In this document: piece after piece, positions 2,856-13,649 of the stretch | How positions within the stretch are numbered: position 1 is the stretch's first letter | How the letters are laid out: the number at the start of each line of letters is the position of its first letter | NCBI GenBank assembly: GCA_043813155.1 | Contig: JBDRLK010000004.1 | Span: forward strand, 1-14,112 | Direction of reading: 5' to 3' | DNA: 14,112 nt | Source of the DNA: Pseudomonadota bacterium | GTDB taxonomy: Bacteria > Myxococcota_A > Polyangia > DRWM01 | Translations under genes and position numbers: made by a program | The notes under the pieces: generated by a model | Databases searched by the model: none | The model's input: the letters and a program-made list of their open reading frames with translations, nothing else | Told to the model about the DNA's origin: nothing

Positions 2856-4385
2856 TCACCGGGACCTGCGGCGGGCAAGGACCACCAGGACAACGGCAAC
2901 CATCCACAGGAAGCCAACCGATGAAACCGGACCTTGCGGCGACATGGTGCATGCGCACCCCGACCCGACTTCCAAGGACGGCGGCAGGGAAAAATCAGCT
3001 TCGGCATCCCCGCCGGCATCGACGTCAACATCAGGCTCAGCCATGTCGTCAACGTCAGGCTCAGCCACGTCGTCAACATCAGGCTCAGCCACGTCATCAA
3101 CATCAGCGTTCACCCAGTCCTCGGTCATGGCGTCCATGCCGGCATCGGACGCTCCGTCGGGCTCGGCGTCCGGTTCCGTGTAGGCGTCATCATCAGGTTC
3201 GGGCCCGCTGCCGGGCGTGACGCGGATCGCGTCGAAAGCGAGCTGGATATTCTCGGAGACCGGCTCGCCCGTGTTGTCGTTGAGAAGCACGAACTGCTCG
3301 CCGCTCGCGGCGAAGTCGAATGAGCCGATCGGGTTCCATCCATCCACAGCGGTCTGGTCGACGCGCACCGAATCGGTCGTCTCCCCGTGCCGTATATCGT
3401 AGAGGGCCCTGCGGCTTTGCGCGAAACCACCGTCCGTGTAGGCCTCGAGCATGTATCTCCCGGGCGTGGAAAAGATGATGTTCCAGCGGCCCCAGTCATC
3501 CGGCGAAGAGTCGGACGTGGCCGTGGTCCAGATCAAGTGCCCGTCCCATCCCGCGGATTCGTGGTGCCAGTACATTGGCGTTCCGCCTTTCACGAAGCAC
3601 GGCCCGCGCTCGTCCAGGATCCCGCCCTCGGGCGGAAGCGGATCACATGTCGGCAACGGCCCGCCGCCGTCATTGTGTGAGACGAGCGTCATCCTCCTGA
3701 CGAGGTCCTCGTAACCGTCGAACGGTTCGGGCACCACCGCGTTGCCGCCGTACGAGCCGCCGGACCCCGAGCCGCCGACGGTCGAGTCCCGGTGCATTGC
3801 AAAGTGCAGGTGCGTCCCGAAATAAGGACACGAGAGCTCCCCGTTGCACGAGTCGCCCAGCTCGCCGACCTCGGTGCCCATCACCACACTGTCTTCCTCT
3901 GACACATAGACGTCATTCAGGTGGCAGTACATCGTGACGTAACGATGGCCGTCAGCGTTGTAGTCGTGCAAGATGACTACGCGCAGGCCGTAGTTGGACC
4001 AACCGGACGTTGCCCATCCTGCCAGGAGCACCGTGCCGGAGGCCACGGCAAGGACCGGCTGCCCAAGGCCATCGGACGGGTAGTCGGGGAGGGTAAAGTC
4101 GAGAGCATAGTAGTCGTTGGCGTGGCTCGTGTCGTCCGTTGTGGCATGCAGTGACGAACCGCCCGACGGTGAGTAGCCGGCGGAGATATAAACGTTCTCA
4201 CCTGCGAGGAATGGAAGGCGGATCTCGAAGTCAACAGGGAGACTCACGCCTCCCTCGATCGGGGTTGTGATCGCTTCGGCGCCTTGCGTCGCCAGCAGCG
4301 CCGAGACCAGCACTGCCGCCCGGAACCCGGCATGCGCGCTCCCGCGGAGCAGGCGCCCGCGCCGCATGTTCAATCTTCCCTGCAT
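2856..4385 (-). CDS. Secreted M23 (LytM/lysostaphin-type) zinc metallopeptidase with a signal peptide, a C-terminal beta-rich domain, an acidic DVDDVAEP tandem-repeat linker, and a MYXO-CTERM-like Cys-containing sorting tail.
   Basis: Signal peptide: MQGRLNMRRGRLLRGSAHAGFRAAVLVSALLATQGAEA. M23 motifs: SHANDYYALDF (HxxxD-like) ... VVILHDYNADGHRYVTMYCHL ... GTHLHFAMH (HxH). C-terminus: ...GSGCACTMSPQGPVSSVGFLWMVAVVLVVLARRRSR, a Cys motif plus TM helix plus basic tail. The RBS is aaaGGAGtccggccATG, giving a 7-nt spacing. Confidence 0.85.
   Translation of the reverse strand: MQGRLNMRRGRLLRGSAHAGFRAAVLVSALLATQGAEAITTPIEGGVSLPVDFEIRLPFLAGENVYISAGYSPSGGSSLHATTDDTSHANDYYALDFTLPDYPSDGLGQPVLAVASGTVLLAGWATSGWSNYGLRVVILHDYNADGHRYVTMYCHLNDVYVSEEDSVVMGTEVGELGDSCNGELSCPYFGTHLHFAMHRDSTVGGSGSGGSYGGNAVVPEPFDGYEDLVRRMTLVSHNDGGGPLPTCDPLPPEGGILDERGPCFVKGGTPMYWHHESAGWDGHLIWTTATSDSSPDDWGRWNIIFSTPGRYMLEAYTDGGFAQSRRALYDIRHGETTDSVRVDQTAVDGWNPIGSFDFAASGEQFVLLNDNTGEPVSENIQLAFDAIRVTPGSGPEPDDDAYTEPDAEPDGASDAGMDAMTEDWVNADVDDVAEPDVDDVAEPDVDDMAEPDVDVDAGGDAEADFSLPPSLEVGSGCACTMSPQGPVSSVGFLWMVAVVLVVLARRRSR
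3021..3108. repeat. About 3.5 tandem copies of a 24-nt unit, gtcgtcaacgtcaggctcagccac on the + strand. They encode (D-V-D-D-V/M-A-E-P)n in the M23 peptidase on the - strand.
   Basis: Near-identical 24-mers sit at 3021-3044, 3045-3068 and 3069-3092, with a degenerate copy at 3093-3116. The repeat is in-frame and coding, so it is not CRISPR-like: there are no spacers. Confidence 0.85.
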
Positions 4386-4470
4386 GGCCGGACTCCTTTA
4401 TTGGGGATATTAATATAGAATGTTATTTCTGAAAATAAATCAAGGGGTTTCACCAGGTGTCCTTAACCAT
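4386..4470 (-). promoter_or_regulatory. AT-rich upstream region of the M23 peptidase gene with a candidate sigma70-like promoter.
   Basis: The minus strand reads TTGATTtattttcagaaataacattcTATATTaatatccccaataaaGGAGtccggccATG. The hexamers are plausible, but the spacer (~20 nt) is long, so the promoter assignment is weak. Confidence 0.25.
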
Positions 4471-4540
4471 TCCCTTCTCTCCCGCCGCCGCAGTGCGGAC
4501 CCCCGTGAGCCCGGCTCATGACATCTTGACCCCAGCTGTG

Positions 4541-4573
4541 CCTCCCGAAAACTTATTTTCCCTTGGAAAATAG
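4541..4573 (-). terminator. Weak candidate rho-independent terminator downstream of the CCC transporter gene.
   Basis: Inverted repeat tattttcc (4554-4561) / ggaaaata (4565-4572) with a 3-nt loop. On the minus-strand RNA it is followed by AGUUUUCGGG. The stem is AU-rich with only 2 GC pairs, so it is weak. Confidence 0.25.
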
Positions 4574-4630
4574 CAGACAATCTCAACCGATCACAGATGA
4601 AGTTGAAACCGGAAAAAGCGACAGCCCGCG

Positions 4631-6973
4631 TCAAACGAAAATGTTGGCGTCGCCCTTGGACAGGACGATGACGGTAGTCGGGAGCGACTTGAACACGTCG
4701 TGCATGTCGTGCAGGTAGGCGGCGAAATTCAGGGCGTTGCTCTCGGACATGCCGACGAAAACGAGGTCGGCCCGGGCCGACATCCGTTTCATGATCTCGC
4801 GCGGCGGGTCGCAGGACGCGATGACGTCCACGGCCATGGACAGCCTGGCTTTTTTAAGCATGAGCTTGAGGAGGCTGCTTTCCTTTCCGGCGTCCTCGTC
4901 ATCGCCAACGATCCTCAGGAGCCGGACCATGGCCCCCTGCCATGCCCGGTTCAATGTCATGAGGTAGGCGAAGAGGGCCATGAGAGAGCCGTTCCTCTCG
5001 CCCCTCCACCAGACGTCGATGATCCTCTTTCGCCGCTTCCCCTTGACGAAATCCCCCGGTTTCAGGATGGCCAGGTTCAGGCCGTGCGCCCACATGAGGT
5101 GCACCTGCCGGGCCAGCTGCGCCCTCTCCCCCGGGTCGGCGCCCGGCGGTATGGCGATCATGCCCGTGTTCGGCCGCAGGGGGCCGAGGGAATAGCACTG
5201 CAGGAACGATGAAAACGTCTCGAGATAATCGCTGCCCACGACGGCCTCGCCGTAGGCCTGGATCCCCTGGGCGGCCAGGAAATTTTTAAGCTCCCCCAGC
5301 CTGGCCCTGCGCATCTCGAGCCGCTCGCCCTGGTCCATGCCGGGCTCGGCCGAGATGTCCGCGACCGAAAGGAGGCCCCTGCGGCCCTCGATCAGGGCCG
5401 CTATGGTCACGAGCTGAAGCTCGCTCGTCGGGTTGTCGGCCACGGCCGTGAGGATGGGCCGCCAGTTTTTCGGGTGAACGGGCGTGTCGCCCAGAACGAG
5501 CAGGTTGTCCCTTATCTTTGAAAACACGTACCCGCGCTTCGCGTCGCCCCACTCGGTCTTGATGTTCTTGCGCGTCAGGTACATCCAGATCGCGCCCGTG
5601 ACGGCCATGGCGATGAGGGCCGCTGTCTCATTGATCTTGATCATGGCCACGACGCAGCCCACCGTGCCCGTGATCGAGGTGAACTTGTTGGACCACTTGA
5701 ACCCTGGACGGAAGGAGGGGTTTGCGCTGACCGACTCCACGAAAGCGGAAAGGTTGATCATGCCGTAGGCGATGAGGAAAAACATGGAGATGACCTCGGC
5801 CACGGCGTTCAGGTCGCCCGCCCAGATGATGCAGGCCGCCAGGATGAACGTGGCCACCGTGGCGCGGCGCGGCTCGTTGTCCACGCCGTGCCCCTTGGCG
5901 AAAAAATTGAGAAAGCCAAGCAGGCGGTCCCGGGCCATGGACTGGAGGATGCGCGGCGCGCCCAGGAAGCTTCCCAGGGCCGAGGAAAGCGTTGCCGTGA
6001 ACACGCCCAGGATCACGAGCGGGCCGAAGAGGCTCATCTGCTGCAGCGCGCCGAAGGGATCCGCGATGAGGGCCTTCCTGCCGACCGAGCCGGCCATGAG
6101 CCAGATCTGCAGAAGATAGATCGCGGCGGTGAAGGCCACGGCGAAAATAGTGCCCAGGGGTATGGCGCGGCTGGGGTTCTTCAGGTCCCCCGACATGTTG
6201 GCGCCCGCCGTGATGCCGGTCACGGCCGGGAAGAAAATCGCGAAGACCGCCCAGAAGGACATGTCCTTTGTAAAGGCGCTGCCCTTGTTCGCCTCGAGAA
6301 TGGCCTCGTCATAGCTGAGAAACCCTCCGACGATGAAGCTGAGGATGGAGATCACCAGGATGGCGAGAACGATGTACTGGGCCTTGATGGCGATGCCCGC
6401 GCCCTTGAAGGTCAGGACGAACAGGCCGAAGACGACCAGGGTCGAAAGGACCTGCGCCGCGTGCAGCGTCTGCCACAGGGCCCACAGGTCCACGTCGAAA
6501 AACGTGTAGGCCTTGAGAAGCGGGGCGACGATGCTCTCCAGCGCCTCGGTAAACCCGATGACGTAGAACGCCACGCCCACCGCCTGGGCCAGGAAAAGCG
6601 TGATGCCGATGGACCCGCCGAAGTTCAGGCCCAGGACCCTGGAAATCATGAAGTAGACGCCGCCGACCTTGACGTCCGTGTTCGTGGCAATGGTGGATAT
6701 GGAAAAGCTCGTGAGGATCGTGATCATCTTGCTGATGCCCAGGATGACCAGGGCCAGCCACAGGCCGCTCTCGCCCACGACGAACCCCGTGCGCATGAAC
6801 ATGATCACGCCCAGGATCGTCAGCACGCTGGGCGTGAAAACGCCCCCGAAGGTCCCGAACCTTCCCCTGGTCTCCTCCTCCTCGTCCGGGAGTTCGTCCA
6901 GGGAGGTCCTTACCCTGCATTCCCTTTCGCTTTCATCCCGGTCCGGCTGACCATTGTGTTCATTCCCGCTCAT
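4631..6973 (-). CDS. Cation-chloride cotransporter (SLC12/CCC family, APC superfamily) homologue with 12-TM permease core and full SLC12-type C-terminal cytoplasmic domain
   Basis: N-terminus: MSGNEHNGQPDRDE.... TM1 region: FGTFGGVFTPSVLTILGVIMFMRTGFVVGESG (SLC12 signature GTxxGVFxP...NIxGVxxFxR). C-terminal domain: ...HPKNWRPILTAV... (compare KNWRPQLLVL), ...IDVWWRGERNGSLMALFAYLM... (compare IDVWWIVHDGG) and ...TVIVLSKGDANIFV (compare VLLVRGGG.EV). The start was chosen at ATG 6973, preceded by GGAAG; the 1117-aa six-frame ORF is an upstream artefact with no stop. Confidence 0.9.
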   Translation of the reverse strand: MSGNEHNGQPDRDESERECRVRTSLDELPDEEEETRGRFGTFGGVFTPSVLTILGVIMFMRTGFVVGESGLWLALVILGISKMITILTSFSISTIATNTDVKVGGVYFMISRVLGLNFGGSIGITLFLAQAVGVAFYVIGFTEALESIVAPLLKAYTFFDVDLWALWQTLHAAQVLSTLVVFGLFVLTFKGAGIAIKAQYIVLAILVISILSFIVGGFLSYDEAILEANKGSAFTKDMSFWAVFAIFFPAVTGITAGANMSGDLKNPSRAIPLGTIFAVAFTAAIYLLQIWLMAGSVGRKALIADPFGALQQMSLFGPLVILGVFTATLSSALGSFLGAPRILQSMARDRLLGFLNFFAKGHGVDNEPRRATVATFILAACIIWAGDLNAVAEVISMFFLIAYGMINLSAFVESVSANPSFRPGFKWSNKFTSITGTVGCVVAMIKINETAALIAMAVTGAIWMYLTRKNIKTEWGDAKRGYVFSKIRDNLLVLGDTPVHPKNWRPILTAVADNPTSELQLVTIAALIEGRRGLLSVADISAEPGMDQGERLEMRRARLGELKNFLAAQGIQAYGEAVVGSDYLETFSSFLQCYSLGPLRPNTGMIAIPPGADPGERAQLARQVHLMWAHGLNLAILKPGDFVKGKRRKRIIDVWWRGERNGSLMALFAYLMTLNRAWQGAMVRLLRIVGDDEDAGKESSLLKLMLKKARLSMAVDVIASCDPPREIMKRMSARADLVFVGMSESNALNFAAYLHDMHDVFKSLPTTVIVLSKGDANIFV

Positions 6974-7090
6974 GCCTGCTTCCAACGTGGCGCAAATATT
7001 GTATAAACAAAATTCAAGGGCAAAAAAAGGGGTAGGCGAAAAAAATTTACCTCTTGCACTCTTCACGTAAAAGTGCCATGAATTTTCAGG
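6974..7090. promoter_or_regulatory. AT-rich divergent intergenic region between the CCC transporter (-) and the hdrA-like cluster (+); presumably carries both promoters.
   Basis: The region reads ...ttgtataaacaaaattcaagggcaaaaaaaggggtaggcgaaaaaaatttacctcttgcactcttcacgtaaaagtgcc. A candidate -35/-10 pair, TTTACC-16-TAAAAG, lies just upstream of ATG 7091, implying a very short leader and no clear SD. Confidence 0.3.
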
Positions 7091-7978
7091 ATGGGTCCGC
7101 ACGAAAACCACGACAAGGCCGGGAAAACTTTCCGGCCCGCCATTGGCGTCTACGTGTGCCACTGCGGCCAGAATATCGCCTCCAGGGTCGACATCGGGGC
7201 GGTCGTTTCCTTTGCGGCCGGGCTCCCGTCCGTCAGCGCCTCCCGTGAGTACAAGTTCATGTGCTCGGACCCCGGCCAGAACCTGATCAAGGAAGACTTG
7301 AGGAGCGGGCTTGTCAACAGGGTGCTCGTGGCATCCTGCACACCGCTCATGCACGAGACAACGTTCAGGAAAGCGGGTGAGGACGGCGGCATCAATCCGT
7401 TCCTGGTCCAGATGGCGAACATCAGGGAGCACGTCTCCTGGGTCACGGACGACACGGACAAGGCCACCCTCAAGGCCAAGGCCCTGATTTCCGCGGGCGT
7501 TGCCAGGCTCAGGCGGCACGTCCCCCTGGAAAGAAGAAGGCTGCCCGTGCGCCAGGAAGTCGTGATCATCGGCGCCGGCGTGGCCGGCCTGTCCGCGGCC
7601 CTGGCCATAGCCGAGGCGGGGAAAAAAGTCTTCCTCGTCGAAAAGGAGCCCTCCATCGGCGGCCACATGGGATATTTCGACAAGACGTTCCCCACGCTCG
7701 ACTGCGCGGCCTGCACCCTGACGCCGAGAATGGTCAGGGCGGGAAGCCATCCGAACATTGAAATCCTGTCCATGAGCGAAGTGACCGGAATTTCCGGAAG
7801 AACGGGGGACTACACGCTGAAGCTGAAAAAAAGGCCAAGGTATATCGACGAAGAAAAATGCAACGGCTGCGGCGCGTGCTGGAGCAGCTGCCCCGCGGTC
7901 AGGGTGCCTGCCCGCCGGGTCATAACGATCGGCGGAAAGCCAATAGGTGAATCGACGATCGAGCGAACCTGCAAATGA
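7091..7978 (+). CDS. hdrA: HdrA-like heterodisulfide-reductase subunit A, N-terminal portion. It holds the N-terminal Cys-cluster domain, the first half of the FAD/thioredoxin-reductase-like domain, and the first CxxCxxCxxxCP motif of the inserted ferredoxin domain.
   Basis: Motifs follow the order of a canonical HdrA N-terminal half: IGVYVCHCGQNIA...YKFMCSDPGQNLI...VLVASCTPLMHETTFRK...NPFLVQMANIREHVSW (N-domain); VVIIGAGVAGLSAALAIAEAGKKVFLVEKEPSIGGHM (FAD Rossmann); TFPTLDCAACTLTPRM; YIDEEKCNGCGACWSSCP. The gene ends in TGA overlapping the next ATG (ATGA). Confidence 0.85.
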   Translation: MGPHENHDKAGKTFRPAIGVYVCHCGQNIASRVDIGAVVSFAAGLPSVSASREYKFMCSDPGQNLIKEDLRSGLVNRVLVASCTPLMHETTFRKAGEDGGINPFLVQMANIREHVSWVTDDTDKATLKAKALISAGVARLRRHVPLERRRLPVRQEVVIIGAGVAGLSAALAIAEAGKKVFLVEKEPSIGGHMGYFDKTFPTLDCAACTLTPRMVRAGSHPNIEILSMSEVTGISGRTGDYTLKLKKRPRYIDEEKCNGCGACWSSCPAVRVPARRVITIGGKPIGESTIERTCK

Positions 7979-9747
7979 GCGCAACGGTTGACATAGTTGA
8001 CATAGAGGTGGGCGGCAGGGCCATCGCCGCGCCCGAGGGCGCGATGCTGCTGCCCGTGCTCCTGAAAGAGGGCTTCGATGTTCCCCACCTGTGCTTCCAT
8101 GAAAAGCTCAAGCCCTATGCGGCCTGCCGCCTCTGTCTCGTGGAGGTCGAAAAAGGCGGCCGCAGGAAGATCGCCACGTCGTGCAACCATCCCGTCATGG
8201 CCGGGCTCAAGGTTTTCCTGGACACGGACGAAATCCTGGAGCAGCGTAAAAATCTTCTCGAGACCATGCTCGCCCAGGCGCCGGACTCGGAGCAGGTCCG
8301 CCGCTATGCCGCGCGCTACGGCGTGCATGACACGGCGCTGAAAAAACAGGAAGGCAAGTGCATCATGTGCGGCCTGTGCGTCAGGGCCTGCGAGGAAATC
8401 GCGGGCGCCCATGCCATCACGCTCGCCGGGCGGGGCAACTTCAAGACGGTCGATTCCCCCTACGGCGATGTCACGCCCCGATGCATTGCCTGCGCCGCGT
8501 GCGCAACCGTCTGCCCCACGGGCCACATCGAGGTGCGCGACGCAAGGGGAAGGGCCGTTGCGCACGACGAGCTCGTCGTGGGCCCGCAATCGGCCGTGTT
8601 CACACCCACGCGCCAGTCCGTGCCGGCCGTGGCCGTCATCGACCCTGAAAGCTGCATCCACATGCTCACTGGCGGATGCGGGATCTGCCGCGACGCCTGC
8701 GAGCGGGAGGCCATAGATTTCGACCAGAAGGAAGAGACCTCCGAGCTGAAAGCCGGCGCGGTCATCGTGGCCACGGGCTTCGAGCCGTTCGACCCCTCCG
8801 GGCTGCCGCAGTTCGGCTACGGGGTTTTCAACAACGTCATCACCGCGCCGCAGGTGGAAAAGATGTCCAACGCGTCGGGCCCCACGGACGGAAAGATCCT
8901 CACGGCCGAGGGACGCAGTCCCGGGAGCGTGGCCATTGTCCATTGCATCGGTTCGCGGGACAAGAACACGAACGAGCACTGCAGCAAGGTCTGCTGCATG
9001 GTCTCGCTGAAGCTGGCCCATCTCATCCACGAGAAAACGGGCGCGTACGTTACGAATTTCTACATCGACATCCGGGCGGGCGGCAAGGGCTACGAGGAGT
9101 TTTATGCAACAGTAGCGGCGCACGGGGTAAGGTTCATCAGGGGAAAGGTCTCCGAGGTGAGGGCGGGAAGCGAGGACGACCCCGAGGAGAGCGGGAAGCT
9201 CGTCGTGGAGGCTGAAGACACGCTCATCTGCAGGCCGGTTCAGCTTCCCGTCGACATGGTCGTGCTCGCGGTCGGGCTCGAAGCGCGCAGGGACGCCGGC
9301 AGCCTGTCCGGCGCCCTGAAAATCGCCAGGAGCAGGGACGGTTTTTTCATGGAGCGGCACATCAAGCTTGCCCCGGCGCACACGCTCGAGGACGGCATTT
9401 TCATCGCCGGCGCGGCCCAGGGGCCCAAGGACATCCCCGAAAGCGTGTCCCACGGAGCGAACGCCGGGCTCGAGGCGCTCAGTCTCCTGGACAGGGGGGA
9501 GATCGAGCTGGAAGCCAGCATCTCGACCATCGACCCTGACTTCTGCACGGGATGCGGCGTTTGCGAGGCCATCTGTCCTGCCGGCGCAATCTGCGTTGAC
9601 GAAAAGAAGAAAATCGCAAGAGTCGACGAAACAGGCTGCAAGGGCTGCGGCCTGTGCGCGGCGGCGTGCCCGGCGCAGGTTGCGGACCAGAGGGGTTTTA
9701 CGGAGCGGCAGATATGGGCGGAAATCGACGGGCTCCTGATAGTGTGA
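7975..9747 (+). CDS. hdrA: Fusion protein: an N-terminal NuoG/HydA/FdhA-like [2Fe-2S]+2x[4Fe-4S] module, followed by the C-terminal portion of HdrA. The HdrA part holds the second cluster motif of the inserted ferredoxin domain, the second half of the FAD domain with the CxGSRD...C..CC cluster, and the C-terminal 2x[4Fe-4S] ferredoxin domain.
   Basis: N-terminal module: MSATVDIVDIEVGGRAIAAPEGAM...HLCFHEKLKPYAACRLCLVEVEKGGRRKIATSC (Cx10CxxCx15C plant-type 2Fe-2S), then CIMCGLCVRAC and CIACAACATVCPTG. HdrA-derived part: ESCIHMLTGGCGICRDACEREAIDFD; AVIVATGFEPFDP; VAIVHCIGSRDKNTNEHCSKVCCM; FYIDIRAGGKGYEEFY; SRDGFFMERHIKL; IFIAGAAQGPKDIPESV; CTGCGVCEAICPAG...CKGCGLCAAACPA. This region matches a canonical HdrA C-terminal half. 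Confidence 0.85.
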   Translation: MSATVDIVDIEVGGRAIAAPEGAMLLPVLLKEGFDVPHLCFHEKLKPYAACRLCLVEVEKGGRRKIATSCNHPVMAGLKVFLDTDEILEQRKNLLETMLAQAPDSEQVRRYAARYGVHDTALKKQEGKCIMCGLCVRACEEIAGAHAITLAGRGNFKTVDSPYGDVTPRCIACAACATVCPTGHIEVRDARGRAVAHDELVVGPQSAVFTPTRQSVPAVAVIDPESCIHMLTGGCGICRDACEREAIDFDQKEETSELKAGAVIVATGFEPFDPSGLPQFGYGVFNNVITAPQVEKMSNASGPTDGKILTAEGRSPGSVAIVHCIGSRDKNTNEHCSKVCCMVSLKLAHLIHEKTGAYVTNFYIDIRAGGKGYEEFYATVAAHGVRFIRGKVSEVRAGSEDDPEESGKLVVEAEDTLICRPVQLPVDMVVLAVGLEARRDAGSLSGALKIARSRDGFFMERHIKLAPAHTLEDGIFIAGAAQGPKDIPESVSHGANAGLEALSLLDRGEIELEASISTIDPDFCTGCGVCEAICPAGAICVDEKKKIARVDETGCKGCGLCAAACPAQVADQRGFTERQIWAEIDGLLIV

Positions 9748-9756
9748 GCAAGCCCT

Positions 9757-10902
9757 ATGACATGGAGCGATGATACAACAATGACCGGCTATAACCTTCC
9801 ATACGACGAATGTGCCGGCGACGGCCTGCGCACCGTGCTCGAGAAGCTTTTCGAGACCGGGGCCGTCTCTGCAGCCATCGTGCCGCTGGAGAGCAGGGGA
9901 AAGACCAGGCTCGATCTCTGCCTCGTCGGCGCTCGCGGCGCGCTCGAGAAGGCCAGGCCGATAGCGCCCTTTTTCTTCGGCAACAGGGCGCTCGGCGTTT
10001 CCAGGCTCACGCGCCTGGGCGAGCTCCCGGAACGGGCCATCGCGATTCTCAGGCCGTGCGAGGCCAGATCGCTCGTCGAGCTCAGGAAGCTCAAGCAGGC
10101 CGCCTCGGACAACCTGATCATTCTCTGCGTGGATTGCGCCGGCACGGTTTCCGCCGCTGATTACAGGGAGAAGATGGCGAGTGGCTCGGGGTTCCACCAG
10201 CAGCTGGCCCATGCCTTTCGCCAGGGACAGGACCTTGAGGGAGCGCGTGAAGCCTGCTCCATCTGCCGGTATCCCGCCCTGGACAATGAAATCGACATCC
10301 ACGCGGGCCTCTTCGGCCAGGAGGGCTGCGTGCTGCTGCTGCCGGTTTCGGAAAAGGGAGCCGGCCTGCTCGGGGGCCTCGGCATGCAGGAGGCCGGGCA
10401 GCCGGAGCTGGATGCGCGAAAGGAGGCCCTGAAAAAAATCAGGGAGCACAGGAAAGCCAGGCAAGGGGAATGGCTTGCCGCCCTGCCCTTTGCTTCGGGG
10501 GGGGCAAAAGCGCTGGCAGCGCATTTCGATTCCTGCGAGCAGTGCCGGGCGTGCTCCGAGACCTGTCCCGTCTGCTACTGCAAGCAGTGCTACTTCAAGA
10601 TGGCGTCCATGGAAACAGAGCCGGCGAACGTGTTTCTCAAGGCGGCGCACCTGGAGAAAGTGCCCCTGCCCTCCTCGCCTCTTTTCTTTCACCTTGGCAG
10701 GATGACGCACATGGCCCACTCGTGCACCGGCTGCGGCGCCTGCACCGAGGCCTGCCCGTCGGGCATCGACGTGGCAAAAGCGTTCATTGCCGCCGCCGGC
10801 GAGGTCCAGAAAACGTTTGACTACGAGCCCGGCAGAAGCACGGACGATAAACTGCCGGTAACGATTTTCAAGGAAGACGAACTGGAGGATGAAGTAAGGT
10901 GA
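9757..10902 (+). CDS. Iron-sulfur flavoprotein: an FrhB/FdhB-family (F420-hydrogenase beta-like) N-terminal domain fused to a C-terminal HdrC/GlpC-like di-[4Fe-4S] domain.
   Basis: N-terminal half, ...GDGLRTVLEKLFETGAVSAAIV...APFFFGNRA...IAILRPCEARSLVELRK...LIILCVDCAG, parallels the FrhB order Q-DGG...EGAVV / KYTFSPN / AIPCQTMGIR / LLVGIYCMENF. C-terminal half: CEQCRACSETCPV and CTGCGACTEACPSG motifs spaced ~54 aa apart, as in HdrC. The start is ambiguous: ATG 9757 has no SD, and ATG 9781 lies 13 nt after GGAG. The stop TGA overlaps the GTG of mvhD. Confidence 0.7.
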   Translation: MTWSDDTTMTGYNLPYDECAGDGLRTVLEKLFETGAVSAAIVPLESRGKTRLDLCLVGARGALEKARPIAPFFFGNRALGVSRLTRLGELPERAIAILRPCEARSLVELRKLKQAASDNLIILCVDCAGTVSAADYREKMASGSGFHQQLAHAFRQGQDLEGAREACSICRYPALDNEIDIHAGLFGQEGCVLLLPVSEKGAGLLGGLGMQEAGQPELDARKEALKKIREHRKARQGEWLAALPFASGGAKALAAHFDSCEQCRACSETCPVCYCKQCYFKMASMETEPANVFLKAAHLEKVPLPSSPLFFHLGRMTHMAHSCTGCGACTEACPSGIDVAKAFIAAAGEVQKTFDYEPGRSTDDKLPVTIFKEDELEDEVR

Positions 10903-11309
10903 CCGAATTCAATCCAAACATCATTGCCTTCCTGTGCAACTGGTGCTCCTACACCGGGGCCGACCTGGCGGGAACCTCGAGGCTCAAGATTCCCGACTCC
11001 ATCAAGGTCGTCAGGGTCATGTGCTCCTCGAGGGTCGACCCGGCGTTCATCATCAAGGCGCTGCAGGAGGGGGCGGACGGGGTCCTGGTCGGGGGATGCC
11101 ACCCCGGCGACTGCCATTACCAGAAGGGAAATTACTATGCGCGAAGGAGAATCGCCGCTTTGAGAAGCATACTGGGAGCCCTGGGCCTCGAGCCGGAGCG
11201 GGTGCGCCTCGAATGGATCTCGGCGTCCGAAGGCCCCCGTTTTTCACAGGTCACGGGCGAGTTCACGGACGCCGTCAGGCGGATGGGGCCCAGCCCCCTG
11301 CGTGTGTAG
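10899..11309 (+). CDS. mvhD: MvhD (methyl-viologen-reducing hydrogenase delta subunit) family electron-transfer protein.
   Basis: Hallmark Cys pattern: IIAFLCNWCSY...VVRVMCSSRVDP...GVLVGGCHPGDCHY. GTG start with GGAGG 9 nt upstream. A 4-bp GTGA overlap with the preceding gene indicates translational coupling. Confidence 0.85.
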   Translation: MTEFNPNIIAFLCNWCSYTGADLAGTSRLKIPDSIKVVRVMCSSRVDPAFIIKALQEGADGVLVGGCHPGDCHYQKGNYYARRRIAALRSILGALGLEPERVRLEWISASEGPRFSQVTGEFTDAVRRMGPSPLRV

Positions 11310-11342
11310 CTGCACGCCCCCGGCGCGCCTGGTCAACATCAT

Positions 11343-13649
11343 ATGAATGACAACACACCATATTTCCCGGCGGTCGTCATAGGCGGCGGCGTGTGCGGCC
11401 TGCGCGCGGCCTTCGACCTGAAGGACCTGGGCGTGCCCTGCCTCGTCATCGAGAAGAGCGACGCGGCGGGCGGAAAGCTCCTGAGGCTCGAGCGATGGTT
11501 CACCGAGGATTCCTGCGGGCTGTGCCGCATCCTTGACAGCGAGAAGCGCCCTCTTCTTCCCCGGGACGAAGATGAAATCCTGTGCCTCCGCCGCAACGTG
11601 GCGCGGCGCGACATCGACCTGTGGACGGGCTCGCGGGTTGTCGGCGTGAGCCGCACCGGCGAAGGGCTCACCCTTCAAATCGAACGTAACGGCAAAGCGG
11701 CGCAGCAGGTCTCATGCGACGCGGCCATCGTTGCCGCGGGCATGGACGATATCGACATGCATTACCTGTCCCACTTGAGGGCGGGCCTGGATCCCGACGT
11801 GGTTTCGGGGGAGCGGTTCGAGGAGATGATCGCGCGCGCCGCGCAAAAACCCCTGCGCAGACCGTCGGACGGCCGCCGGGTTGAAAAAATCGCTTTCATC
11901 GGGTGCGCCGGGAGCAGGGACGCCGCGCACCCGTGGTGCTCCTCCGCCTGCTGCGGCTACCTGGTGAAAGAAATCAGCCTGCTGGCCGGCGTGGACGGGG
12001 GCATCAAGCCCACCCTCTTCTGCATGGACGTCAGGCTCCATGCCAAGGGCATGCACCCGTACGGTGAAAAGGCGCTGAGCCGCACTCGCGTGGTCAGGGC
12101 CAGGGCCGGCAGCCTGGAGAGGAAGCGCAGCGGCATGCTGGCGGTCCGGGCTGTGAGCGATGAAGCGCTGGAGGAAATCGAGGTCGACCTGGCGGTCCTT
12201 TCAGGCGGCGTGAAACCGGGCAGCGCTGATCTCTTTTCCATGCTCGGCGTGAACACGGACCGGCACGGTTTTCCGGCAGCGCAGGCAGCCGTCAATCCCA
12301 CGGTTACATCGAATCCCTCTGTTTTCGTTGCCGGGGCGGCCAAGACGCCGTGCGATATAGCATCCAGCGTAATGGAAGCCAGGGCGGCAGCGGCCGCTGT
12401 TTTTGATCGGCTGGCGGAAATCAAACCGGACATCACCGGCTTTGCGGGCAAGGGCGGAAGGGCGCTTGTCATCGGCGGGGGCGCGGCAGGGCTCGCCGCG
12501 GCAAAGACCCTGGCCGCCGCGGGCCACGAGGTCACTGTCCTGGAAAAGCAGAATGCGGCCGGCGGCATGAGCACGGACATTCGCATCGACCCGGCCGGCA
12601 GGGACGCGGCAGGCCTCATTGAAGCGCTTGCGGCGGAGGTTGCCGCTGATGACAGGGTCCGTATCCTGAGCAACACGGAGGCAATCGCGATCAATGGAAG
12701 GTTGTGTAATTTCAGCGTGTTACATAACAATTCTTCCACTGCACTATCAGGTCATTTCGACACGGTTGTCGTGGCCGCGGGGGCCTCGTTGCACAGGGAC
12801 GAAAGGCTCGATAATGGAAAGATCATCACCCTGAAGCAGATGGAGTCAAAGCTGCATGCCGGCGACGGCGTGGGGGGCGATGTTGTCTTCATTCAGTGCG
12901 CCGGGTCGAGGGACGCCGACCACCCTTACTGCAACGCGGTCTGCTGCCCAAAGGCCCTGGCCCTGGGAATGGAAATACTGAAAAAGGGCCCAAGGGCCTG
13001 GATCCTCTACAGGGACATGATGACCGCGGGCAGGGACGAAGCCCTTTACACCAGGGCGAGAGAGGCGGGAGTCATCTTCGTACGCTACGAGCCGGCACGT
13101 GCGCCGGCCCTCAGCATCGGCGAGGGCGGCGCTGTCCGCGTCGAGGTGGAAGAGACAACACTGGGACGAAAGCTTGTTCTGAGCCCGGAGCTCGTCGTCC
13201 TGTCGTCGGGGATAGATCCTCCGGCCGGGGTTCTCGCGTCCCTGCAGGTCCCGGTCGGCGGCGACGGTTTCGCCGCCGAGGACGACCCGAGATTCAGGCC
13301 GTGCCAGTCGACGAGAAAAGGCATTTACGTGGCCGGCAACGCAAGATACCCGGCAAGCAGCAGCCAGGCCGCGCTCCAGGGTATCTGTGCCGGCATGGGC
13401 GCGTCGATCCTGGGGGGGCTCGCGAGGACGGTGAGCCATGAAGTCGAGCCGTCCCGTACCAGGGAAAAGCTGTGCGCCGCGTGCGCCGTCTGTGTCGACG
13501 CATGCCCGGCAGGGGCCAGGTTCCTGGACAGCGCGATCGAGCCCACGGCACGTGTCGAGGCCCGCCTTTGCCAGGCCTGCGGTCTCTGCGCAGCAGCCTG
13601 CCCTTCCGGCGCCGCCGTCGTCCCGGGAGCACCGCTTCGAGCGCCTTAG
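11343..13649 (+). CDS. Tandem-duplicated HdrA-like flavoprotein: two consecutive FAD/TrxR-like HdrA core domains plus a C-terminal 2x[4Fe-4S] ferredoxin domain. The HdrA N-terminal Cys domain and the inserted ferredoxin domain are absent.
   Basis: Domain 1: AVVIGGGVCGLRAAFDLKDLGVPCLVIEKSDAAGGK ... EDSCGLCRI ... IAFIGCAGSRDAAHPWCSSACCGY ... VFVAGAAKTPCDIASSVMEARAAA. Domain 2: ALVIGGGAAGLAAAKTLAAAGHEVTVLEKQNAAGGM ... VVFIQCAGSRDADHPYCNAVCCPKAL ... IYVAGNARYPASSSQAALQG. C-terminus: CAACAVCVDACPAG ... CQACGLCAAACPSG. Confidence 0.85.
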   Translation: MNDNTPYFPAVVIGGGVCGLRAAFDLKDLGVPCLVIEKSDAAGGKLLRLERWFTEDSCGLCRILDSEKRPLLPRDEDEILCLRRNVARRDIDLWTGSRVVGVSRTGEGLTLQIERNGKAAQQVSCDAAIVAAGMDDIDMHYLSHLRAGLDPDVVSGERFEEMIARAAQKPLRRPSDGRRVEKIAFIGCAGSRDAAHPWCSSACCGYLVKEISLLAGVDGGIKPTLFCMDVRLHAKGMHPYGEKALSRTRVVRARAGSLERKRSGMLAVRAVSDEALEEIEVDLAVLSGGVKPGSADLFSMLGVNTDRHGFPAAQAAVNPTVTSNPSVFVAGAAKTPCDIASSVMEARAAAAAVFDRLAEIKPDITGFAGKGGRALVIGGGAAGLAAAKTLAAAGHEVTVLEKQNAAGGMSTDIRIDPAGRDAAGLIEALAAEVAADDRVRILSNTEAIAINGRLCNFSVLHNNSSTALSGHFDTVVVAAGASLHRDERLDNGKIITLKQMESKLHAGDGVGGDVVFIQCAGSRDADHPYCNAVCCPKALALGMEILKKGPRAWILYRDMMTAGRDEALYTRAREAGVIFVRYEPARAPALSIGEGGAVRVEVEETTLGRKLVLSPELVVLSSGIDPPAGVLASLQVPVGGDGFAAEDDPRFRPCQSTRKGIYVAGNARYPASSSQAALQGICAGMGASILGGLARTVSHEVEPSRTREKLCAACAVCVDACPAGARFLDSAIEPTARVEARLCQACGLCAAACPSGAAVVPGAPLRAP

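Follow-up and report, generated by a model that had tools for sequence, protein, structure and literature searches.

Four families of electron-bifurcating enzyme are known; the HdrA and Bfu types are two of these and are normally treated separately. In HdrA the low-potential branch runs from the FAD through the N-terminal cluster to the clusters of the inserted ferredoxin domain, which form the exit (PMC9012536). The closest described Bfu protein is WorA of WorABCSL (9MQX; PMC12318220, PMC9304861), a type-2 BfuA that is a free subunit with the cofactor set A1, A2 and A4 and without A3; the roles of these clusters used below are taken from PMC9304861 and PMC12318220. The one described combination of the two types is the Bam-Bfu class II benzoyl-CoA reductase BamBCDEFGHI, which brings together BfuABC (BamGHI), an HdrA-type (BamE) and an MvhD-type (BamF) protein (PMC9304861) and for which two bifurcations in series have been proposed (PMC9304861). 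In addition, the inserted ferredoxin domain of ANME-1 HdrA paralogues is interrupted by an NfnB-like domain (PMC9012536), and NiFe-HydABCSL (7T2R; PMC8880783) pairs BfuABC-type genes with [NiFe]-hydrogenase small and large subunits.

Here we describe two adjacent genes, ORF1 (7091..7978, 295 aa) and ORF2 (7975..9747, 590 aa), in a window of 14,112 nt, this being the whole stretch of DNA analysed, with all features given below lying on the + strand. These are probably the two halves of one naturally two-gene, bifurcating HdrA that contains a BfuA module and belongs to a rare sub-lineage, with no bfuCB in the operon, of a Bfu-Hdr family.

ORF1, the hdrA N-half, matches the NCBIfam HdrA2 profile at positions 2–258 (E 2.9e-100) and aligns with the solved HdrA chains 5odc_A (3–263) and 8rvu_a (10–266). 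Its N-terminal [4Fe-4S] domain contains C23, C25, C58 and C83, all matched in 8rvu_a, and a FPTLDCAAC segment, corresponding to the Cys197 region of methanogen HdrA (FPTLDCxxC), is present and aligns with the same chain. The FAD-binding Rossmann motif VVIIGAGVAGLSAA is found at 7556..7600 (Pfam FAD_binding_2, NAD_binding_8 and Pyr_redox_2, residues 156–210), and the first CxxCxxCxxxCP motif of the inserted ferredoxin domain, CNGCGACWSSCP, at 7859..7894 (C257–P268). The protein ends 28 residues past this C257-x2-C-x2-C-x3-C-P motif, in a family-specific C-terminal tail, AVRVPARRVITIGGKPIGESTIERTCK (7895..7975), which is conserved among ORF1-family proteins with the consensus xxVPxxRVIRKGxxxI.

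ORF2 is the bfuA-like::hdrA C-half. It begins through an ATGA stop/start overlap at 7975..7978 (ATG 7975–7977, TGA 7976–7978), where ATG 7975 is the earliest start codon available downstream of the in-frame stop in the ORF2 frame, and this overlap suggests that translation of the two genes is coupled. The first domain is of the [2Fe-2S] type (7996..8214; Pfam Fer2_4, residues 8–80) and corresponds to BfuA cluster A1, with the ligands C40-x10-C51-x2-C54-x15-C70 conserved in 100% of 121 sequences, matches to the N-terminal domains of NuoG, HoxU and HydA-A6, and an alignment to WorA (9mqx_A). A 2x[4Fe-4S] ferredoxin-like part follows at 8350..8532 (Pfam Fer4_7 and Fer4_21, residues 126–186), with two CxxCxxCxxxC motifs (C129/132/135/139 and C170/173/176/180) corresponding to clusters A2 and A4, whilst no His/Cys A3 (N5-type) site was found in ORF2 residues 86–125. 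The best solved match of the module is WorA (9mqx_A residues 3–193 against ORF2 6–195, E 4.6e-35) and the next-best representative matches are free-standing BfuA-like proteins of ~250 aa. Judged by its cluster ligands and the alignment to WorA, the module is the N-terminal domain of a type-2 BfuA, with A1, A2 and A4 present and without A3 or A5.

HdrA resumes with the linker HDELVVGPQSAV...QSVP, from which point (8560..9747) the assignment rests on 5odc_A, the HdrA2 profile and Cys conservation. This part contains the second inserted-ferredoxin motif (8653–8700; C227, C235, C238 and C242), the [4Fe-4S] motif HCIGSRD...C..CC of the FAD/thioredoxin-reductase domain (8944–8997; C324, C336, C340 and C341) and a C-terminal 2x[4Fe-4S] ferredoxin domain (9523–9684) with eight Cys at positions 524–565. 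Residues 200–587 align with 5odc_A 266–649 (E 1e-101), including the remaining FAD/thioredoxin-reductase fold at residues 250–505, and ORF2 covers positions 240–639 of the HdrA2 profile; taken together, the profile and PDB alignments span ORF1 and ORF2 200–587 with neither overlap nor loss. ORF2 has 28 cluster-ligand Cys, all of them kept in 99–100% of 121 sequences. Both ORFs score below the NCBIfam whole-protein cut-off for HdrA (NF040770, 1100 bits), ORF1 reaching 336.5 bits and ORF2 416.7 bits, because HdrA is split.

These alignments agree with a first-pass annotation of the locus made from the letters alone, which had HdrA broken in the loop past the first inserted-ferredoxin Cys motif, the following gene starting through an ATGA overlap and the FAD domain shared by two polypeptides; the Rossmann motif indeed lies in ORF1 and the remaining fold in ORF2, and 5odc_A and 8rvu_a, the kind of HdrA structure that it had proposed for comparison, place both halves. 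Its estimate of an insertion of ~200 aa against a canonical spacing of ~35 residues becomes a net insertion of ~210 aa (about 254 residues between the two Cys motifs, over two chains) against the 37–45 or so residues of canonical HdrA. The NuoG/HydA-type [2Fe-2S]+2x[4Fe-4S] module that it placed at the break is borne out by Pfam, NCBIfam and PDB matches and was right as to type, and can now be specified as a type-2 BfuA, with the break at the place that bfuCB occupies in related loci.

The operon recurs with all five genes in three relatives (L086, L087 and L001), whose assemblies are independent and whose proteins show 92, 73 and 63% identity, and each of them again has two genes for HdrA. 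The junction varies between them, with a 4-bp overlap in L086, an 8-bp overlap in L087 and a 5-bp gap after the stop in L001, and the split is therefore genuine. Most of the best 120 homologues of ORF1 are 275–323 aa long (median 283 aa; a further two reach 416 and 452 aa), and 119 of the best 120 homologues of ORF2 are 575–624 aa. Comparison with L086 gave dN/dS values of 0.14 (module), 0.11 (HdrA part of ORF2) and 0.12 (ORF1), ratios which indicate that the module is under purifying selection.

The other three genes of the operon encode an FdhB/FrhB-like iron-sulfur (flavo)protein of 381 aa (9757..10902; Fer4_8 being the only Pfam match), an MvhD-type [2Fe-2S] adaptor of 136 aa (10899..11309; Pfam FlpD, E 9e-55; NCBIfam VhuD) and a tandem (fused) HdrA-like protein of 768 aa (11343..13649). 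In the last, the FAD/thioredoxin-reductase unit occurs twice, with a CxGSRD...C..CC motif in each copy; there is a single C-terminal ferredoxin domain and no N-terminal domain. FdhA is not encoded in the operon. The conserved core of Bfu complexes consists of BfuB, which is NuoF-like with additional FeS domains, and the NuoE-like BfuC. Neither bfuB nor bfuC was found on the 14-kb window contig, nor, in L086, L087 and L001, within 10 kb; HdrB (CCG domains) and HdrC were absent by Pfam from the five operon ORFs and from within 10 kb in the same three relatives, and no [NiFe]-hydrogenase (MvhA/MvhG) was found in the window or within about 10 kb in these relatives, where the five-gene operon is flanked by unrelated genes.

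A wider family of loci gives this arrangement its context. The counts from the genome scan are those of a sample, so that figures are lower bounds: in at least 37 loci a NuoF-like gene lies immediately upstream of the module gene, and in 31 of the 37 loci listed NuoE-like and hdrA_N genes likewise lie upstream, giving the order hdrA-N, bfuC (NuoE-like), bfuB (NuoF-like), bfuA::hdrA-C. BfuC and bfuB thus sit between the hdrA halves of these relatives, and the split therefore marks a Bfu cassette inside hdrA, an arrangement of which we found no description in the literature searched. The NuoF-like protein of the L010 operon (669 aa) has BfuB architecture, and the halves of hdrA are 6–7 kb apart in L005, L007, L025 and L043. 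Many of the related loci read hdrC-hdrB-hdrA_N-bfuC-bfuB-bfuA::hdrA_C-mvhD-mvhG-mvhA, with mvhDGA present in about 15 relatives among the loci listed, and the loci listed span many bacterial phyla and include two archaeal MAGs. The window represents a rare and reduced version of this Bfu-Hdr chimera, without bfuCB, hdrBC or hydrogenase in its operon.

Compared with the HdrA of MvhAGD-HdrABC (5ODC, 8RVU, 7BKB), with which the window shares an MvhD adaptor encoded in the operon, HdrA is here made of two chains with ~210 extra residues (module and tail) and lacks HdrBC and MvhAG; both inserted-ferredoxin motifs are present, yet on separate polypeptides. The cofactor set is that of WorA, and in at least 37 related loci the module gene follows bfuC and bfuB as BfuA genes do, but instead of being a free subunit the module is joined to HdrA and, in topology, inserted within it. 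As in Bam-Bfu, HdrA-type and MvhD-type proteins occur together, here as a tandem HdrA and MvhD in the window's operon, whereas in Bam-Bfu the NuoG-like BamI is separate and HdrA unsplit; Bam also has a tungsten AOR-type catalytic subunit (BamB) and an HdrD-like one (BamD), domains that no protein of the five-gene operon contains. ANME-1 HdrA, and HdrA proteins of ~1000–1240 aa with a GltD-type insertion (PF14691) that were found among the homologues, also have a foreign redox module in the inserted ferredoxin domain, but there a flavoprotein is inserted and the protein stays a single chain, whilst here the module is an FeS wire and HdrA is divided between two chains. The full-size relatives resemble NiFe-HydABCSL in pairing BfuABC-type genes with hydrogenase small and large subunits, although their hydrogenase is Mvh-type with MvhD and is linked via HdrA and HdrBC, and the window has no hydrogenase.

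Fused forms, for which the first-pass annotation had suggested a search along with forms free of the [2Fe-2S] domain, were both found among the homologues, the former at 870–925 aa and the latter as a single-chain class of ~800 aa that has lost that domain. The fused L003 (925 aa) is colinear with the split L088 except that bfuC and bfuB (~2.5 kb) are replaced by ~108 bp, and the fused P0094 sits among split proteins at 81–88% identity (bootstrap 100), both being evidence that loss of bfuCB can reunite the hdrA halves. An AF2 model of P0094 resembles both HdrA (TM 0.77) and WorA (TM 0.72), with pLDDT below 50 across the junction (271–326). The N-half tail is kept in P0094 and in the ~800-aa class and is missing from the fused P0244 and P0245, which could represent an older state. 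In L041, whose assembly may be long-read, a frameshift breaks the module. The NJ tree resolves poorly at depth, and the family could have arisen either by insertion of the cassette into hdrA or by insertion of the module followed by fission.

The division of the FAD and inserted ferredoxin domains between ORF1 and ORF2, together with their strict co-occurrence, suggests that the halves co-assemble. This would restore both domains, and if the standard 2x[4Fe-4S] fold is adopted each cluster of the inserted ferredoxin domain would draw three of its Cys ligands from one chain and the fourth from the other. The likeliest role of the module is to lengthen the low-potential branch of HdrA, which would then run through FAD, the N-terminal cluster, the inserted ferredoxin clusters, A4, A2 and A1; by topology the inserted ferredoxin domain carries the module at its distal end, which is not, as had initially been supposed, beside the bifurcating flavin. 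In the relatives A1 would trade electrons with the NAD(H)/ferredoxin core of BfuBC, coupling two bifurcating modules, whilst in the window's operon the tandem HdrA, ferredoxin and a BfuBC from elsewhere in the genome are candidate partners of A1. The probable point of entry or exit of electrons is the C-terminal ferredoxin domain of HdrA, by way of the FdhB-like protein and MvhD. More tentatively, a class of chimeric Bfu-Hdr machines may exist in which the low-potential arm of the HdrA FAD is wired through A4-A2-A1 to the BfuBC site, allowing serial bifurcation between H2 or another donor, disulfide, NAD(H) and ferredoxin; the window would be a stripped version in which the orphan module wires the split HdrA to the tandem HdrA, a multi-flavin bifurcating or confurcating enzyme for which HdrBC and BfuBC are dispensable.

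The likeliest rival is that BfuBC, and perhaps HdrBC and a hydrogenase, are encoded elsewhere and that a full Bfu-Hdr chimera is assembled from unlinked genes. The module is conserved as though it had a partner, and the 6–7 kb between halves in L005, L007, L025 and L043 implies that tight linkage is dispensable; since in L086, L087 and L001 the operon has unrelated genes on either side and no bfuCB within 10 kb, we regard this as unlikely. It is rather improbable that the module is a functionless relic left by the loss of bfuCB in an ordinary, merely split HdrA: bfuCB is not near the operon in four loci, the ~800-aa class shows that the module can erode and that of L041 is frameshifted (with the proviso on its assembly given above), but all 12 module Cys are intact in the window and in relatives down to 63% identity, and the module and the HdrA part have similar dN/dS. 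Public records give the two genes separate names ('FAD-dependent oxidoreductase' and '4Fe-4S binding protein'), and they could be read as independent proteins, one a small flavoprotein and the other an electron-transfer subunit of HoxU/BfuA type whose HdrA tail is degenerate; this is very hard to maintain when the Rossmann motif is in one and the rest of the FAD/thioredoxin-reductase fold in the other, each half has one motif of a single 2x[4Fe-4S] domain, the halves share an operon in 31 of the 37 loci listed and natural fusions are known. Least credible of all, and rejected here, is the view that one ~885-aa hdrA only looks broken through a frameshift error in sequencing or assembly, or has recently become a pseudogene, since, although the ORFs are one frame apart with a 4-nt overlap, so that a 1-nt indel could in principle join them, and single-chain proteins with the module do exist, the three junction types, the two or more genes between the halves in at least 31 other loci, the mostly half-length homologues of both ORFs, the intact Cys, dN/dS values of 0.11–0.15 in halves and module and the coincidence of ATG 7975 with the domain N-terminus of homologues all oppose it. 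The doubt about an artefact voiced in the first-pass annotation is thereby answered, and where it had asked whether related genomes have a single long gene, L086, L087 and L001 carry two.

On the reading preferred here, of a natural two-gene HdrA with a BfuA module, HdrA incorporates a BfuA wire at its low-potential exit, and in many genomes the Bfu core genes lie inside hdrA. The halves carry other names and score below HdrA cut-offs, and metagenome inventories of Hdr and Mvh will therefore miss or miscount them. Nature provides a set of deletion variants, namely loci that have bfuCB, loci that lack it, re-fused forms and forms free of the [2Fe-2S] domain, and these offer a means of dissecting how HdrA hands on low-potential electrons. 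The split HdrA would be a natural two-chain form whose FeS clusters bridge two polypeptides, and the prediction for the family is a physically coupled, serial bifurcation.

The window, which is the entire 14,112-bp MAG contig, carries HdrA as two overlapping forward-strand ORFs, ORF1 (hdrA_N; 7091-7978, 295 aa) and ORF2 (bfuA::hdrA_C; 7975-9747, 590 aa), which share the bases ATGA. The NCBIfam HdrA2 profile covers ORF1 at positions 2-258 (E = 2.9e-100), and the solved HdrA chains 8rvu_a (10-266) and 5odc_A (3-263) align with it as far as the first CxxCxxCxxxCP motif (C257-P268), the protein containing the N-terminal cluster domain, the FAD Rossmann motif and an FPTLDCAAC segment. ORF2 opens with a Fer2_4 [2Fe-2S] domain (C40, C51, C54 and C70) followed by two CxxCxxCxxxC motifs (C129-C139 and C170-C180), and HdrA resumes from residue 200 on, where 5odc_A 266-649 aligns (E = 1e-101). 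The two ferredoxin motifs are separated by ~254 residues over two chains, versus ~37-45 residues in single-chain HdrA. The first-pass annotation, which had described a split HdrA with an inserted iron-sulphur module and proposed its alignment to HdrA structures, was accurate in that description. Both halves bear only generic names in public records. The C-x8-C spacing of the second ferredoxin motif was considered as a family marker and discarded, since ordinary ~650-aa bacterial HdrAs share it. On the 3' side of the first ferredoxin motif (window 7895-7975) ORF1 ends in a conserved ~20-aa tail, xxVPxxRVIRKGxxxI, common to ORF1-family proteins and loosely resembling the first beta-strand of a 2Fe-2S domain. 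This tail is kept in P0094, a deletion-derived single-chain fusion, and is missing in the fused proteins P0244 and P0245, which may therefore represent a different or older state.

As ORF1 and ORF2 lie in different frames, an indel could in principle fuse them, and a frameshift artefact or pseudogene had initially been left open. Comparative evidence rules this out. Half-length homologues dominate: 119 of the best 120 matches to ORF2 are 575-624 aa long with Fer2_4 (the other is 925 aa), and most of the best 120 matches to ORF1 are 275-323 aa (median 283), two being longer at 416 and 452 aa. The same five-gene operon is found in three independent assemblies, which keep two genes with a junction that differs each time, namely a 4-bp overlap in L086 (92% protein identity), an 8-bp overlap in L087 (73%) and a stop followed by a 5-bp gap in L001 (63%). 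All cluster-binding cysteines of ORF2 are 99-100% conserved among 121 sequences. Compared with L086, dN/dS is 0.12 in ORF1; within ORF2 it is 0.14 in the module and 0.11 in the HdrA part.

The closest solved relative of the module (ORF2 residues 6-195) is 9mqx_A (E = 4.6e-35), the chain of WorA, which serves as BfuA in WorABCSL, a bifurcating tungsten aldehyde oxidoreductase (PMC12318220). WorA is a type-2 BfuA with the clusters A1 [2Fe-2S], A2 and A4 [4Fe-4S] but without A3 (PMC12318220; classification PMC9304861). ORF2 has an identical cysteine set, and no A3-type His/Cys motif was found at the expected A3 position. Only ~15 clusters among 1.84 billion library representatives give a continuous match to the module plus the HdrA start; after these, the best matches of the module are free-standing ~250-aa BfuA-like proteins. 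An AF2 model of P0094 (mean pLDDT 75; module >90) matches both HdrA (TM 0.77) and WorA (TM 0.72); it is good for the module and most of HdrA and uninformative across the junction. The underlying alignment was built from fused, canonical and C-half sequences, half-length N-half sequences being left out because MAFFT misaligned them (~20-27% apparent identity).

The position of the split is explained by other genomes. Using an alignment of ORF2 residues 1-330 as query against one genome per GTDB species, with the loci then mapped by tblastn, the module was found fused in frame to the HdrA C-part at no fewer than 37 loci. In all 37 of the loci listed a NuoF-like gene (bfuB) lies immediately 5' of the module gene, and 31 of these loci have a NuoE-like gene (bfuC) and the hdrA N-half further upstream; at most of the others the contig end is reached before these genes. 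Many of the loci listed have the order hdrC-hdrB-hdrA_N-nuoE-nuoF-[module::hdrA_C]-mvhD-mvhG-mvhA. Lineages with such loci include Ignavibacteria, Zixibacteria, GN15, Eubacteriales, Anaerolineae, Armatimonadota, Terriglobia, Verrucomicrobiota, Planctomycetota, Desulfobacterales, Bipolaricaulota and two archaeal MAGs. At one of them, L010, the genes are tightly packed and the 669-aa NuoF-like protein comprises, from N- to C-terminus, a thioredoxin-like [2Fe-2S] domain, an FMN domain, NADH_4Fe-4S and 2x[4Fe-4S], which is the BfuB architecture (PMC9304861). The break in hdrA thus marks the position that bfuC and bfuB occupy in related loci, and ORF2 is bfuA joined to the remaining hdrA.

Two variations on this arrangement were seen. 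At L005, L007, L025 and L043 an extra ~4 kb parts hdrA_N from bfuC. In L005 this stretch (3179-7561) holds DRTGG, HATPase and PHP genes and a sensory [FeFe]-hydrogenase-like gene (Fe_hyd_lg_C plus FeS domain), pointing to H2- or redox-responsive control built into the operon; judging by gap size, the stretches in the other three loci would be equivalent. The second type is a ~1,090-aa bfuA::hdrA::hdrA fusion (L027, L028, L030-L033, L035, L038 and L045; ~1,080-1,110 codons, at about 10001-13300 in most), in which the BfuA module is joined to a shortened HdrA C-part and a second HdrA. Upstream of it lie a short hdrA_N that lacks the N-terminal domain, then bfuC and bfuB, and downstream, in most of these loci, mvhD and an FdhB-like gene; the hosts include Desulfobacterales MAGs, an Altiarchaeales genome and another archaeal MAG.

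On the NJ tree of the HdrA C-part the window groups with L086, L087 and L001 (bootstrap 98), and all four have in common the operon hdrA_N, bfuA::hdrA_C, FdhB-like, MvhD and tandem HdrA. This operon is self-contained with unrelated flanking genes, and neither bfuCB nor hdrBC nor a hydrogenase is encoded within 10 kb of it. The FdhB/FrhB-like protein (9757-10902, + strand) matches 7bkb_E (E = 1.6e-18) and gave no match to the Pfam FrhB_FdhB models; no formate dehydrogenase catalytic subunit is encoded in the window operon. ORF5 (11343-13649, + strand, 768 aa) carries a tandem pair of HdrA-type FAD units, both with CxGSRD...C..CC, and a single C-terminal ferredoxin domain, without the N-terminal or inserted ferredoxin domain, and is kept in all three relatives (754-773 aa across the clade). 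Tandem HdrA arrangements of this kind have been discussed for ANME archaea (PMC9012536). The relatives carry a sigma-54 response regulator 3' of the operon; a sigma-54 promoter 5' of ORF1 was rejected, the match at 6988-7003 being weak, the number of matches at chance level and the site not conserved in relatives.

Other features of the window were recorded alongside. A 29-nt inverted repeat (13645-13673/13840-13868; 97% complementary, arms 166 nt apart) begins in the last codons of the tandem-HdrA gene (stop 13647-13649) and could be a small mobile element, a structured RNA or a terminator region. Opposite ORF1, a mechanical ORF of 1,117 aa (4631-7984, - strand) is an over-extension whose N-terminal part in the hdrA region is not a gene; the true gene within it encodes an amino-acid permease/SLC12-type transporter (781 aa in the syntenic L086). 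A 24-nt unit repeated three and a half times in tandem (3020-3106, in the ORF at 2856-4385, - strand) encodes acidic VDDVAEPD repeats near the C-terminus of a 509-aa protein.

Searching for orthologues that are fused or lack the 2Fe-2S domain, as the first-pass annotation had proposed, yielded both, namely the fused P0094, P0244 and P0245 and a [2Fe-2S]-less ~800-aa class. Fused proteins are rare (3 of the 120 best matches to P0094). L003, which encodes the 925-aa P0094, has the gene order of the split locus L088 throughout, save that ~108 bp take the place of bfuC and bfuB (~2.5 kb), and P0094 nests among split proteins (81-88% identity; bootstrap 100, NJ, HdrA C-part). Comparison of these sequences documents loss of bfuCB in one related case, by likeness to which the window lineage would also be a reduced derivative. 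The ~800-aa class (P0249-P0251, single-chain HdrAs of 795-801 aa) keeps the family tail and two extra [4Fe-4S] motifs without the [2Fe-2S] domain, and looks like an eroded version of the module. At L041, also without bfuCB, the BfuA-like module is frameshifted (10001-10512), reflecting either module decay or an assembly error. The NJ tree supports shallow clades only (the window clade, 98; P0094 with its split relatives, 100); at depth canonical, GltD-insert, ~800-aa and module-bearing HdrAs interleave, so that it supports neither a single nor a multiple origin, nor any ancestral state.

From the domain content, conservation, gene orders and natural variants presented here we infer how the complex would assemble and route electrons. 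Since ORF1 and ORF2 each hold only part of the FAD fold and of the inserted ferredoxin domain, the two halves would co-assemble. In the standard 2x[4Fe-4S] ferredoxin fold each cluster is bound by three cysteines of one motif and one of the other, and with the motifs on separate chains both inserted ferredoxin clusters would bridge ORF1 and ORF2. Together the two products are predicted to hold about nine [4Fe-4S] clusters and one [2Fe-2S] cluster. In methanogen HdrA the low-potential branch runs from FAD through the N-terminal cluster to the inserted ferredoxin domain, the outlet, and on to ferredoxin (PMC9012536), and in type-2 BfuA electrons follow A4-A2-A1 to the BfuBC core (PMC9304861, PMC12318220). 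In full-size relatives the fusion would thus connect the low-potential outlet of HdrA with the NAD(H)/ferredoxin site of BfuBC. Among described systems the one analogue is Bam-Bfu, which has been proposed to carry out two bifurcations in series (PMC9304861). In the window, possible partners of A1 are ferredoxin, the tandem HdrA or an unlinked BfuBC, and by analogy with FdhB and MvhD in 7BKB, the FdhB-like protein and MvhD probably provide entry or exit at the HdrA C-terminal ferredoxin domain.

Both building blocks, HdrA and BfuA, are already known, and insertions at the same HdrA spot include an NfnB-like one in ANME-1 (PMC9012536) and GltD-type ones among the P0094 matches. In full-text literature exclusive of Appel et al. 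(2021) we found no description of a split hdrA, a BfuA-HdrA fusion or bfuCB inside hdrA. The module-bearing split-HdrA family is widespread, and the window carries a rare and apparently reduced member of it.
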